A stretch of DNA of 64,000 nucleotides from Candidatus Daviesbacteria bacterium (lineage in GTDB: Bacteria > Patescibacteriota > Microgenomatia > Daviesbacterales > UBA10151), in the NCBI GenBank assembly GCA_016184225.1, contig JACPDA010000004.1, forward strand, positions 6,800 to 70,799. The letters are read 5' to 3'. The notes beneath the pieces are model-generated. The model had not been told where the DNA came from. It searched no databases and was given only the letters and a program-made list of their open reading frames with translations. A program made the position numbers and the translations under genes. The number at the start of each line of letters is the position of its first letter. Within the stretch, counting starts at the first letter, position 1. Shown here one piece after another: positions 7,733 through 64,000 of this stretch.

Positions 7733-8500
7733 TCATACACGGCCTTCCAGAACAGAAATGACCAGATATACCACTACTACTCCCAAAAGGAGCATTATAG
7801 TTTCCCAAAAGGCCACTTTCTGATTATCCCGGTTATGTATTTCCGGGATCAGATTTGCTAAAGCAATATAGATAAAAAAGCCGGAGGTAAGAGCCAAAAT
7901 AATAGGCAAGAATTTCTCAATACTGCCTTGATACAAATAAATCAAGATAGCTCCTGCTAAAGCTGAAAGAGCGCTAAAAAGATTGATCAAAAGCACCTTT
8001 TTTCTTTCTAAGCCCTTGTTAAGCATCAGCCCAAAGTCCCCTATCTCTTGTGGGATCTCATGAGCTGCCACTGCCAAAGAAGTCACAATCCCTAAAGGAA
8101 TGCTGATTAAAAAAGTAGCAGCAATGGCCATGCCATCGGTAAAATTATGCAGCGTATCTCCGATCACCACCAAAGGGATGATTGATTTTTTTTCTTCTTT
8201 AAGGACACTGGTGTGATCGTGATGATGGTGGATAAACCGCTCAAGTAAGAAAAAGATCAGGATGCCTAAAAGAATCCAAAGCGGCAAATTTATATCCAGT
8301 CCTCCTTCTTCCATATATCCCGTAGCCTCCGGCAGCAGATCAAAAAAGGCAGCAGAAAGCAGCGCTCCGGCTGCAAATGAAGATAAATAATGGGAAATAG
8401 AAAGAGCAAACTTTTGTTTAACTAGCAGCAGTATTCCGCCAATTAAAGACACCACACTGCCTATTAAAGTAAAGATGATGATGTATGCTAAAATCCCCAT
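7733..8500 (-). CDS. zupT: ZIP family zinc/iron transporter
   Basis: Multiple TM segments, an HHHHDH loop, and the HNFTDGMAIA and HEIPQEIGDF metal-binding helices typical of ZupT/ZIP. Confidence 0.8.
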   Translation of the reverse strand: MGILAYIIIFTLIGSVVSLIGGILLLVKQKFALSISHYLSSFAAGALLSAAFFDLLPEATGYMEEGGLDINLPLWILLGILIFFLLERFIHHHHDHTSVLKEEKKSIIPLVVIGDTLHNFTDGMAIAATFLISIPLGIVTSLAVAAHEIPQEIGDFGLMLNKGLERKKVLLINLFSALSALAGAILIYLYQGSIEKFLPIILALTSGFFIYIALANLIPEIHNRDNQKVAFWETIMLLLGVVVVYLVISVLEGRV

Positions 8501-8502
8501 TT

Positions 8503-9249
8503 TTAAAGCAGCGGATCTATGACGGCCTGGAAGGCAGAATATGGTTGGGCGCCGACTATAATCGTACCGGTAATAGTGCCTGAGGGATCTGATTTTCCCA
8601 CAAAGAAACTCGGTGTGCCGGAAACTCCGGCCGCACTGCCATCAGCCACATCTTTTTTAATCTCTTCCGCATACTTTTCCGAATCAGCACAAGATTTCAA
8701 ATTTGCCTTGTTTAACCCCAAATCAGCAGCGAATTGGTAGACCTCGTCTTTTGTTAACCCGTTGCCGTTAGATTTGGTTTTGGTAAATATGCTGTTGTGG
8801 AATTTAAAGTAAGCGCTATCTCCCCCTTGTTCCTTAGCACAGTTGGCAGCCCCAGCTTCAAAGGTGGCCATGGGATCATGGAAAGGCAGAGGATAATCGC
8901 GAAAAACCATCTTCACTTTACCCGTATCTATGTAATCTTTTTTTAAAGAAGGGTAGACTTGGTCGAAGTGTCTTTTACAAAAAGGGCATTCATAATCAGA
9001 AAATTCTATCAAGGTTACTTTGGCATCTTTACTGCCCAAAACCGGATCATCATCTAAAGACACTTTGACTGAAGTTGGTTGCTGGGGAGCTTGTGGGACT
9101 TGCGGAGAAGCTACCGGGGCAGTGATTTTCGTACCGGCTGTCTTAGGGGCAATTTTAATAATTCCCCCGTGAATTAAGATAGCGATTGAAATAAGTACTG
9201 ATCCTAACAGAATAGACATCGGGATCGTTAAAAAGGAGTTGCGTTCCAT
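8503..9249 (-). CDS. membrane-anchored DsbA-like thiol:disulfide oxidoreductase
   Basis: N-terminal TM helix, Pro/Gln-rich linker, a CPFC active site and a DsbA-like fold region. Confidence 0.75.
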   Translation of the reverse strand: MERNSFLTIPMSILLGSVLISIAILIHGGIIKIAPKTAGTKITAPVASPQVPQAPQQPTSVKVSLDDDPVLGSKDAKVTLIEFSDYECPFCKRHFDQVYPSLKKDYIDTGKVKMVFRDYPLPFHDPMATFEAGAANCAKEQGGDSAYFKFHNSIFTKTKSNGNGLTKDEVYQFAADLGLNKANLKSCADSEKYAEEIKKDVADGSAAGVSGTPSFFVGKSDPSGTITGTIIVGAQPYSAFQAVIDPLL

Positions 9250-54675: not shown

Positions 54676-54703
54676 AATATTTATTCTACTCCTAACTGAT
54701 TAG

Positions 54704-54776
54704 TAGCAGGGATGAGAGTTGAACTCATGATCTCTTCGTTATGAGTGAAGCGCTTTAACCACTAAGCTACCCTGCC
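54704..54776 (-). tRNA. tRNA-Met (anticodon CAU); the CCA end is not encoded
   Basis: Manual fold: 7-bp acceptor stem with a G1-U72 wobble; D stem GCTT/AAGC; anticodon loop CTCATAA; T arm ATGAG-TTCAACT-CTCAT; discriminator A. Confidence 0.8.
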
Positions 54777-60476: not shown

Positions 60477-60752
60477 CTACCTTTTCCTGTAAACCTCATC
60501 ATGAGTGCCTATTTTGTAGAAAAAATATTCCTCATCAGTTTCTATGTAAATTATCCTAAAGCTTTTAGTTATGGACATACTCCAGGAATTTTTAATCTCT
60601 CTTGTTATTTTATGAAGTCTTAAGGATTTAAGTTTAGGATTTTGCTGAAACAACTCTAATTGCTTTAGTATTCTTTTATAAAGTTGATTATCCTTCTTTT
60701 GGATTTCATTTAGCTTTCTAAGAACATCTGTACTGAATTTTAGAGATTTCAC
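60477..60752 (-). CDS. RelE/ParE-family toxin-like protein
   Basis: Size, basic C-terminus and operon overlap with an upstream small partner. Confidence 0.55.
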   Translation of the reverse strand: MKSLKFSTDVLRKLNEIQKKDNQLYKRILKQLELFQQNPKLKSLRLHKITREIKNSWSMSITKSFRIIYIETDEEYFFYKIGTHDEVYRKR

Positions 60753-61012
60753 AAATTCTTTAGATATTTATCTAATTCCTCTATATTATTGAATGTGACT
60801 GCTTTGTCTTTATTCTTTAAGGCTCTTTTGTATGCTTTAATAGTAGCGTCAGAGGCTTCAAATTCCGGATATTCCATGTTTTCCACATCTCTAACAATCA
60901 GATGTCTGACATAAGTAGCAAGGGGCAGGCCAAATCTCTGGGCTCTGCTTTCCAGGAAATCTTTTAGAGCTAACGGTAAGTTTATTTTTATCTGAGATTG
61001 TTGAGTAATCAT
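60749..61012 (-). CDS. antitoxin-like partner (RHH/ParD-type)
   Basis: N-terminal NLPLALKDFLESRAQRFGLPLATYVRHLI. It overlaps the toxin start. Confidence 0.5.
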   Translation of the reverse strand: MITQQSQIKINLPLALKDFLESRAQRFGLPLATYVRHLIVRDVENMEYPEFEASDATIKAYKRALKNKDKAVTFNNIEELDKYLKNL

Positions 61013-61245
61013 AAAATGATGATATCACCAATTTCAGGACTTTTCAAGGACTAAAATAAGTGGTATTATTCAGGAATGAAAACGCAGTGCCCATCATGTA
61101 GACAATATAAAGAATCCACCAAACCCAGATTCGCAGGGAAAGAATATATGAGAAATCCGGAATCTAATACTCCACAGCTTACCACTAAAACATTTATCCT
61201 CTGTGATGATTGTGCAAAAAAGCTTGGATTGGGTCTAAAATAATT

Positions 61246-61577
61246 TGGTTGCGGGGGGGAGAGTTGAACTCCCTGCCTCAAGATTATGCTCTCCTGAAAG
61301 AGTAGACTATACCATCATCCCTTTAAACGGATGTCCAGCGTATAATTTCAGTTTAGATTCCAGAATATCTGGTACCTGAAATATAAGCAAAGCTTGATAG
61401 CTTCGCTATTAAGTCGTTACAGGGTACATTTATGTAAACTAAACGTACTTCCCACGGTATTACCATTTAATTGATCTTTTTCTAAAGGTTTCACCGTTAT
61501 GAGCTGGATTCTCTCCGATAATTACTCATCGGAGGGCCCAAATTGAGCCTTGTGTGCAGCCGTTACACTTCCCCGCA
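61246..61577 (-). ncRNA. ssrA: tmRNA (ssrA) candidate: an RNA of about 330 nt with a tRNA-like 5' acceptor and a 3' T-arm plus ACCA
   Basis: In minus-strand sense the 3' end is GGGAG-UUCAACU-CUCCC + CCCCGCA + A + CCA, which is a T-arm, an acceptor 3' strand and an encoded CCA. The complementary UGCGGGG lies exactly 332 nt upstream. A CUCAA/UUGAG helix sits in the H2a position. The region is a 590-bp ORF-poor spacer. I could not identify a tag ORF with confidence. Confidence 0.4.
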
Positions 61578-61604
61578 GGCATATTATAGCATAGAATATG
61601 TTGT

Positions 61605-61847
61605 ATGTGGTTTCTCTATATTCTCCTTTGTAAAGATGGAAGTCTTTATACTGGAATATCAAACAACGTAGAAAAAAGATTTTCCGAGCACAAAAATGGC
61701 AAAGGAGGAAGATACACCAGGTCACATAAACCTATTAGGTTAGTTTACCAAGAACAATTGCGAAACCATACAGAAGCTTTAAGAAGAGAATGTGAAATTA
61801 AAAGTTGGACCAGGGCAAAGAAGATTAAAGTTCTAGAGTTTGACTAG
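61605..61847 (+). CDS. GIY-YIG nuclease superfamily protein (UPF0213-like)
   Basis: FLYILLCKDGSLYTGISNNVEKRFSEH contains the GIY...YIG pattern, with conserved Arg and Glu downstream. Confidence 0.8.
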   Translation: MWFLYILLCKDGSLYTGISNNVEKRFSEHKNGKGGRYTRSHKPIRLVYQEQLRNHTEALRRECEIKSWTRAKKIKVLEFD

Positions 61848-63936: not shown

Positions 63937-64000
63937 TGGTGGAACTGCCTGGATTCGAACCAGGAACCAAATGTGTATAAGACATTTGCTCTACCGTTGA
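63937..64000 (-). tRNA. tRNA with anticodon UAU (Ile-type); 5' part lies outside the window; CCA encoded
   Basis: Minus sense reads ...AATGT-CTTATAC-ACATT, then TGGTT, then CCTGG-TTCGAAT-CCAGG, then CAGTTCC-A-CCA. The anticodon loop carries T33-TAT-A37. Confidence 0.6.

Follow-up and report, generated by a model that had tools for sequence, protein, structure and literature searches.

A tRNA(CAU) gene very probably split by a group I intron in a Candidatus Daviesbacteria bacterium

The DNA analysed here, referred to as the window, is a stretch of 64,000 nucleotides from a Candidatus Daviesbacteria genome (GCA_016184225.1, contig JACPDA010000004.1, positions 6,800 to 70,799). Near its right end, the minus strand reads UGCGGGG-AA-GUGU...ACAC...(about 260 nt)...GGGAG-UUCAACU-CUCCC-CCCCGCA-A-CCA. 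The tRNA-like ends on which the initial annotation was built are all in place on this strand, namely the T-arm, the acceptor strand CCCCGCA, the A and the CCA, and the complementary UGCGGGG is found at 61577-61571, giving a span of 332 nt. With a probability of about 0.92, 61246-61577 (-) is a tRNA(CAU) gene split by a group I intron of 257 nt (61289-61545) without an ORF. The gene and its parts are as follows.

61246-61577, minus strand: interrupted tRNA(CAU) gene, pre-tRNA of 332 nt (sequence read, ARAGORN on the spliced form, orthologs)
61583-61591, minus strand: putative extended -10 element, TG-n-TATAAT, ending 5 nt before tRNA position 1 (sequence read)
61546-61577, minus strand: 5' exon, 32 nt, tRNA positions 1-33 (ortholog identity, ARAGORN cloverleaf)
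61289-61545, minus strand: group I intron, 257 nt, first bases CAAUUUGGGCC, last bases GGAGAG (Rfam RF00028, orthologs, fold z)
61246-61288, minus strand: 3' exon, 43 nt, from the anticodon to CCA (spliced tRNA, orthologs)

The 5' exon consists of the acceptor strand UGCGGGG (61577-61571), the D-arm, the anticodon stem strand CAAGG (61552-61548) and C32 and U33 (61547-61546), the latter being the -1 base at the 5' splice site. The GUGU/ACAC helix, which had been described as resembling a D-stem, is the real tRNA D-stem (G10-U13 / G22-C25). The 3' exon begins with the anticodon CAU (61288-61286) and continues with A37 and A38, the strand UCUUG (61283-61279), the variable loop AGGCA, the T-arm GGGAG-UUCAACU-CUCCC (61273-61257, minus strand), the acceptor strand CCCCGCA (61256-61250), the discriminator A73 (61249) and the encoded CCA (61248-61246). 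A CUCAA/UUGAG pairing (61547-61543 / 61281-61277) had been put forward as an internal helix; the complementarity exists in the sequence but is no helix of the RNA, since it overlaps both the anticodon stem CAAGG/UCUUG (61552-61548 / 61283-61279) and bases 1-3 of the intron.

Standard tools pass over this gene. Applied to the whole window, ARAGORN reported a single tRNA (54703-54776) and zero tmRNAs, and Rfam at gathering thresholds returned the tRNA at 54703-54776, a truncated tRNA at the window edge and nothing else. The split gene also escaped ARAGORN with introns allowed (-i), both in the window and in relatives, and explicit in-silico splicing was therefore applied. Joining 61577-61546 to 61288-61246 yields a 75-nt tRNA(CAU) with a normal cloverleaf according to ARAGORN. 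A sensitive Rfam search covering 61100-61750 (651 nt) gave only one meaningful match, to Intron_gpI (RF00028), positions 1-253 of which aligned to 61276-61555 (-) with 40.1 bits and E = 9.4e-9. Because this score stays below the gathering threshold of 50, an automated Rfam run at that threshold overlooked the intron. The sub-threshold score is a sensitivity limit of the model and no argument against membership in the family. The Rfam seed is without bacterial introns, and cut-offs of 18-20 bits have been applied to tRNA introns (Williams 2020, bioRxiv 10.1101/2020.01.27.920355). The covariance-model search that had been proposed as a check thus found Intron_gpI, under its gathering score, and no tmRNA family in 61100-61750 even at E <= 10. 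The headline reading of the initial annotation, a tmRNA, fell with this result, and its alternative, an intron-interrupted tRNA, was borne out by the full-length Intron_gpI alignment, the spliced tRNA and the intron-less orthologs.

Syntenic loci were gathered via homologues of the neighbouring Nramp protein (75-94% identity, nearly all from Candidatus Daviesbacteria). At one of them (L009, GCA_028715175.1) an uninterrupted tRNA lies directly after Nramp and is 92% identical to the spliced product, and at L003 and L006-L008 the intron that splits the gene is shorter, with UAAU... as its first and ...GGUG as its last bases, and U33|C34 is there the only junction regenerating the L009 sequence. 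In the window, CA stands on either side of the intron, so that three junctions are equivalent in its own sequence; U33|C34 is the sole one with U before the 5' splice site and G ending the intron. Relatives' introns starting UAAU.../AGUA... and ending ...GGUG/...GGAG permit this junction only. The window's terminal G is the omega-G (G61289), and G is terminal in 17/17 distinct introns. A brute-force splice search recovered loop position 2 for the metagenomic locus L136 as well. The gene structure and the exact insertion point are demonstrated by these comparisons.

A scan with the 5' exon, in which each GTDB species was represented by a single genome, gave 29 loci from Daviesbacteria/Microgenomates, each in a different assembly, and from position 2 on the window's 5' exon is the same as in all 29 orthologs. 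The gene is uninterrupted in 13/29, carries an intron at the same site in 15/29 and is cut by the locus end in 1/29. Introns in the fifteen interrupted loci measure 178-236 nt, and that of the window, at 257 nt, is the longest seen. With about half of the sampled related species carrying an intron here, the element is optional, and it is probably mobile or repeatedly lost. The T-stems of the orthologs (GGGAG/CUCCC, GUGGG/CCCAC, GCGGG/CCCGC and GUAGG/CCUAC) covary, indicating that the tRNA gene is under selection. The comparison of related genomes that had been suggested as a check on the tmRNA reading did find a conserved locus, but one occupied by tRNA orthologs, with or without an intron, instead of tmRNAs. 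Many GTDB records titled 'uncultured Gammaproteobacteria bacterium' (binchicken TPA assemblies; L013, L016, L018-L020, L022, L024, L026, L027, L030, L031 and L035-L037) contain the Daviesbacteria-type tRNA locus and neighbours, and their titles look like generic mislabels.

The predicted fold of the intron was examined in 17 distinct introns, parsed by common single-stranded anchors, and its elements in the window are listed below in transcript order.

61535-61549, minus strand: P1 (99% of the helix paired; U•G in all 17 introns)
61512-61534, minus strand: P2, 9 bp (61534-61526 / 61521-61513) with a GUAA tetraloop at 61525-61522 (covariation)
61503-61508, minus strand: P3 5' strand UCCAGC, partner 61339-61334 (covariation)
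61454-61497, minus strand: P4 (ACGGU 61497-61493 / ACCGU 61458-61454) around J4/5 and P5 (61491-61459) (covariation, MFE)
61421-61453, minus strand: P6/P6a, base GGG..CC(U) and 9-bp GUACGUUUA/UAAAUGUAC extension (base 100% paired; MFE)
61411-61417, minus strand: P7 5' strand ACGACU(U) with bulged C, partner 61309-61304 (anchor parsing, covariation)
61340-61410, minus strand: J7/3 insert, a P7.1/P7.2-like peripheral domain (MFE/centroid; comparison with relatives)
61334-61339, minus strand: P3 3' strand GCUGGA (anchor parsing, covariation)
61316-61333, minus strand: P8 hairpin CAUCC-GUUUAAAG-GGAUG (hairpin in 17/17, unrelated stem sequences)
61304-61315, minus strand: J8/7 AUGGUA (61315-61310) and P7 3' strand UAGUCU (61309-61304) (Rfam alignment, covariation)
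61289-61303, minus strand: short P9 hairpin and 3' tail to the omega-G at 61289 (hairpin parsing)

Covariation was tested for P1, P2, P3, P4, the bases of P5 and P6, and P7 in a shared-core alignment from which the insert of the type B introns (described below) had been excised. MAFFT alignments mis-register P7, P8 and P9 owing to the insert and to 1-nt indels; only unambiguous helices were counted for covariation and the remaining ones were handled by the anchor-based parsing. Across the 17 introns, 97.5% of 593 helix cells are standard pairs, changes on both sides occur in 15/35 pairs, and the observed covariation score was matched by 0/500 shuffles, while pairing in slid-partner controls was <= 54%. 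P3, P4, P6 and P7 are paired at 97-100% with compensatory changes, and hairpins for P2, P5, P6, P8 and P9 are found in essentially all introns despite divergent sequences. Conservation of the fold, with covariation, is thus demonstrated for this group of introns. For the window intron the MFE has a z of -4.06, with 0/200 shuffles equally stable, and its MFE and centroid folds return the same helices. The arrangement first noticed is more than chance, given that ARAGORN accepts the spliced tRNA, that uninterrupted orthologs exist and that the fold beats shuffles.

Within P1, exon bases G30-U33 (61549-61546) and intron bases C1 and A2 pair with the guide U-GGGCC (61540-61535), and the U33•G61538 wobble that marks the 5' splice site is invariant (17/17). 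Eight of the nine P2 pairs have changed on both sides, and all 17 introns keep a hairpin capped by G(U/A)AA; in P3, three of the six pairs are compensatory (U-A/C-G, C-G/U-A and A-U/G-C). P7 forms the P3/P7 pseudoknot, and its inner G-C, A-U and C-G pairs are invariant, the G-C pair being the presumed guanosine-binding site. The UAUAGUC segment (61311-61305), earlier noticed for its resemblance to a group I P7 strand, belongs to J8/7 and the P7 3' strand and so was rightly recognised. The architecture expected for the fMet.2Ug class of tRNA introns (see below) is that of subgroup IC3, which is compact, is without P5abc and has GNRA loops on P2 and P9. The window intron has the GUAA loop on P2 and no P5abc, but also a P7.1/P7.2-like insert and a P9 without GNRA.

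Two kinds of intron occupy the site. Type A comprises 14 introns with the P7 5' strand GAGACUA, a J7/3 of CAC and a P9 capped by GUAA; type B comprises those of the window, L020 (identical to the metagenomic L136) and L038, which have the P7 5' strand ACGACU, a short P9 and a 41-nt J7/3 hairpin domain. The outer pair of P4 is A-U in type B versus U-A in type A, and that of P7 is A..U in type B versus G..C in type A. The window intron is thus of the rarer subtype, type A being the commoner occupant of this site. The part of the J7/3 insert common to type B is UUUCAG...CUGAAA (61381-61346), which encloses the stem CCAGA/UCUGG (61372-61360) and an internal loop rich in A. The insert is without covariation support because it is almost invariant in the three distinct copies. 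In the window it is longer by a further ~26 nt (67 nt), which add a 9-bp hairpin (61407-61386), unique to the window; this hairpin and the one common to type B are both seen in MFE and centroid folds. Followed by UAUAUUU, this hairpin at 61386-61407 (-) looked terminator-like in a consensus scan. If it terminated transcription, the pre-tRNA would be truncated; it is more probably no more than a peripheral hairpin of the P7.1 kind.

The P2, P6 and P8 helices of type B introns are closest to those of various different type A introns, rather than to one another. Such similarities of peripheral helices across the types suggest that A and B are related and possibly recombining. It can be proposed, tentatively and with considerable doubt, that the group I introns at the initiator-tRNA site in Daviesbacteria form a population whose members swap modules, type B combining its own P7, J7/3 insert and P9 and a P4-P5 core motif known also from CPR rRNA introns with peripheral helices like those of type A. 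A mosaic of this kind, if true, would mean ongoing recombination or horizontal exchange of ORF-less introns between genomes, in the sole initiator gene of reduced genomes. One hairpin, GUACC-N4-GGUAC (often CUGUACC...GGUACAG), turns up almost unchanged in differing peripheral helices, in P5 of L006, L003 and L016, in P6 and P8 of L014 and L038, and in P8 of L023 and L012, as if a small hairpin were moving between helix positions.

Metagenomes were scanned with the P4-P5 motif of type B in order to collect further type B tRNA introns. The core motif CAUAACGGUGRA...AAYACCGUGGGAAG was present at >120 metagenomic loci (L040-L159), only one of which (L136) is a split tRNA gene. Three of ten sampled motif loci (L055, L062 and L079) match bacterial SSU/LSU rRNA genes, and similarity to the motif loci is restricted to ~64 nt of core.

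The identity of the host tRNA is a separate matter. It is quite probably the initiator tRNA-fMet(CAU), and the alternatives are an elongator tRNA-Met or a tRNA-Ile2 with a lysidine CAU anticodon, which would make the insertion a Met.2Ug or Ile2.2Ug intron. The acceptor stem of the orthologs is CGCGGGG/CCCCGCA-A, with a C1×A72 mismatch in ~25/30 of them that is, to our knowledge, restricted to bacterial initiators. All orthologs have G2-C71, C3-G70, G4-C69 and A73, the acceptor stem of E. coli tRNA-fMet. Position 1 is U in five loci (the window, L014, L016, L020 and L136) and C elsewhere, so that the window has a weak U1-A72 pair instead of the C×A mismatch, a point for the alternatives. The D-stem pair U11:A24 is elongator-like, E. 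coli initiators having A11:U24 in the D-stem. The anticodon stem A29-U41 / G30-C40 / G31•U39 (au/GC/gu) has only one G-C among its three pairs in the 29-31/39-41 block, which is G-C-rich in bacterial initiators. This could speak for an elongator, but au/GC/gu occurs naturally in initiators of mycoplasmas and alpha-proteobacteria, G30-C40 being the essential pair (PMC5389676). Met.2Ug and Ile2.2Ug introns exist as classes, and the type A core is much like the Gba28.Ile2.2Ug seed. Another tRNA(CAU), in which 1:72 is paired, lies at 54703-54776, and the tRNA truncated at the window edge (63940-64000, minus strand) is a tRNA-Ile(UAU), found likewise in L003 (10293-10364) and L006 (11098-11172). 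tRNA-Ile(UAU) is uncommon in bacteria, and its presence nearby makes the need for a CAU tRNA-Ile2 smaller. The Met-elongator and AUA roles can be covered by these two tRNAs, and the tRNA-Ile(UAU) suggests that these Daviesbacteria may decode AUA with no need of a CAU tRNA carrying lysidine. An elongator or Ile2 identity of the split gene is therefore improbable.

Two further readings concern the nature of the locus itself. A tmRNA (ssrA), perhaps divergent or with a non-canonical tag, would account for acceptor and T-arm ends ~330 nt apart, for the encoded CCA and for the size, which is typical of tmRNAs. tmRNAs lack a D-arm and an anticodon stem, and their tag frame is flanked by pseudoknots; here the RNA has a D-arm as well as an anticodon stem whose anticodon is CAU, and a tag frame is missing. 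The D-stem and the missing tag frame had already been noticed as oddities for a tmRNA, and a tRNA predicts both. Together with the interior, whose alignment and covariation fit a group I intron, the empty tmRNA searches described above and the uninterrupted 75-nt orthologs that refute it, this leaves the tmRNA reading with hardly any credibility. A decaying pseudogene, in which the intron no longer splices and another initiator gene is in use, is very unlikely, if somewhat less so. It could draw on U1 in place of C1 and on the window-specific terminator-like hairpin within the intron. Against this, the exons are intact and, save position 1, the same as those of functional-looking orthologs; U1 recurs in four other loci; and core nucleotides are invariant while helices are maintained by compensatory changes. 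CPR genomes are small and their tRNA genes are usually single-copy. The exon scan gave one match per genome in 29 genomes, the interrupted genomes being without a second copy of the exon, and the initiator gene is apparently single-copy. A bulge-helix-bulge intron spliced by proteins was considered and ruled out by the site 33/34, the length of 257 nt, the group I core and the bacterial host; bulge-helix-bulge tRNA introns are short, have 37/38 as their canonical site and are flanked by the BHB motif.

For a tRNA gene split by a group I intron, self-splicing by standard group I chemistry, and hence catalytic activity, would be expected. The precursor would be transcribed from a promoter just upstream, where the putative extended -10 element lies. 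A TAYAAT box 5-6 nt from position +1 occurs in ~20/30 distinct orthologous upstream regions, with a perfect TTGACA nearby upstream in eight of those ~20 loci; a generic promoter scan made no call in the window because a good -35 is absent. From this spacing, transcription would be predicted to start at the 5' end of the mature tRNA, so that the pre-tRNA would have no leader or almost none. The intron would then fold into its P1-P9 core with the P3/P7 pseudoknot, and the guide GGGCC would pair with the exon ...GGCU, placing U33 in the U•G wobble. Exogenous guanosine bound in P7 would attack after U33, the omega-G (61289) would then replace it there, and the 3' splice site would be attacked by the 3'-OH released on U33. 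Ligation of ...GGCU to CAUAAUCUUG... would restore the anticodon loop CUCAUAA, the product being the 75-nt tRNA with encoded CCA.

The closest known setting is fMet.2Ug, one of four classical bacterial tRNA intron settings, to which Met.2Ug, Ile2.2Ug and others have been added, such introns being frequent in metagenome-assembled genomes of unnamed phyla (Williams 2020, bioRxiv 10.1101/2020.01.27.920355). The window intron resembles the cyanobacterial fMet.2Ug introns in the probable type of host tRNA, the insertion CU/...g/CAUAA between 33 and 34, the -1 U, the omega G, a P1 formed from the anticodon stem and loop ...GGCU, the lack of an ORF and the patchy distribution. In contrast to the classical cases, its host is a CPR bacterium (Daviesbacteria) and no cyanobacterium, the anticodon stem of the host tRNA is au/GC/gu, and the intron has the 67-nt P7.1/P7.2-like J7/3 insert and a short P9 without GNRA, whereas the Tpc1.fMet.2Ug seed is without an insert. 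The loop position and the exon context GGCU|CA are also shared with the metagenomic Gba28.Ile2.2Ug and Sba135.Met.2Ug (Williams 2020), and the Gba28 core (GGCUAUAUCGGUAAAA...GUAGAGACUAUACGCC...AUGAUAUAGUCC...GUAA P9 loop) is very near to the relatives' type A introns. The differences lie in the assigned isotype and in the window intron being of type B, with its ACGACU P7 strand, insert and short P9.

Extra domains between the P7 5' and P3 3' strands also occur in the Williams 2020 seed introns Dba165.Lys.2Ug, Pam37.Asn.4Ug, Mba55.Phe.2Ug, Mga42.Leu.1Ug, Cbo40.tmRNA and Tsu4.tmRNA. The window insert has in common with them an outer stem that encloses a hairpin, and an internal loop rich in A, and the tmRNA introns Cbo40 and Tsu4 have two J7/3 hairpins, as has the window. 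Their host genes or positions are other ones, however, their insert sequences are unalignable, and the first hairpin of the window is unique. CPR rRNA group I introns have the P4-J4/5...P4' motif in common with the window intron, but differ in their host genes, and the likeness is confined to the ~64 nt core. Many rRNA group I introns encode homing endonucleases, whereas the window intron is ORF-less. With tmRNA (ssrA) the likeness extends to the acceptor, T-arm and CCA ends and the overall length only, the D-arm, the anticodon stem and the anticodon setting the gene apart, as do the missing tag ORF and tmRNA pseudoknots.

As this kind of element is already catalogued, the locus adds one example and leaves current understanding unchanged. 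To the group I introns of initiator tRNA genes it contributes a case from CPR bacteria and a subtype with structural embellishments; mildly new are the additions that mark type B here, the presence in ~50% of sampled Daviesbacteria species and the mosaic pattern. If this is the sole initiator gene, all translation initiation would depend on guanosine-requiring ribozyme splicing. There is also a risk for annotation. Since standard tRNA and tmRNA finders and the Rfam gathering threshold miss the gene, the genome would seem to be without an initiator tRNA, and a human reader could take the locus for a tmRNA. Group I introns have similarly hampered the detection of some tRNAs in circularised CPR genomes (Lui et al., PMC8172020).

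The 590-bp spacer described in the initial annotation is indeed the site of the RNA gene but is probably not ORF-free. A 55-aa ORF (MKTQCPSC...CDDCAKK...) at 61076-61243 (+), convergent with the tRNA 3' end, has two CxxC motifs and is zinc-ribbon-like; it had no Pfam match, and recurs with 75% identity at the same position in L034 (4131-4259), so that it is probably a real small gene. A GIY-YIG gene of 80 aa lies at 61605-61847 (+) of the window, and others are found in L006 (7330-7602) and at many of the L011-L039 loci (80-96 aa), usually 27-29 nt upstream and divergent or ~200 nt downstream of the tRNA, intron or not. The module of GIY-YIG gene and tRNA is inverted in the window relative to L006, which has a second copy near its tRNA-Ile(UAU). 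The idea that it encodes a free-standing homing endonuclease associated with the intron was rejected, as the gene is adjacent (<500 nt) at ~9-10/13 intron-less versus ~7/16 intron loci. With the GIY-YIG gene independent of the intron, mobility would need reverse splicing, recombination or endonucleases encoded elsewhere. Neither a blastn comparison of the locus with GenBank phages nor exact-pattern scans of IMG/VR with the exon and the intron core gave a match, and a search with the GIY-YIG protein in Logan returned short contigs only, ending inside the 5' exon. The neighbouring gene occurs in the groundwater runs SRR12113425 and SRR12113390.

The cargo beside the tRNA gene varies, and the locus resembles a hot spot for insertions. 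In the window this cargo is a RelE/ParE/YafQ-like toxin and its upstream partner of 87 aa (60477-61012, minus strand). In L006 it is a PIN/MazE pair (7899-8571), and in L009 (4543-6315) a large serine recombinase that directly adjoins the 3' end of the tRNA.
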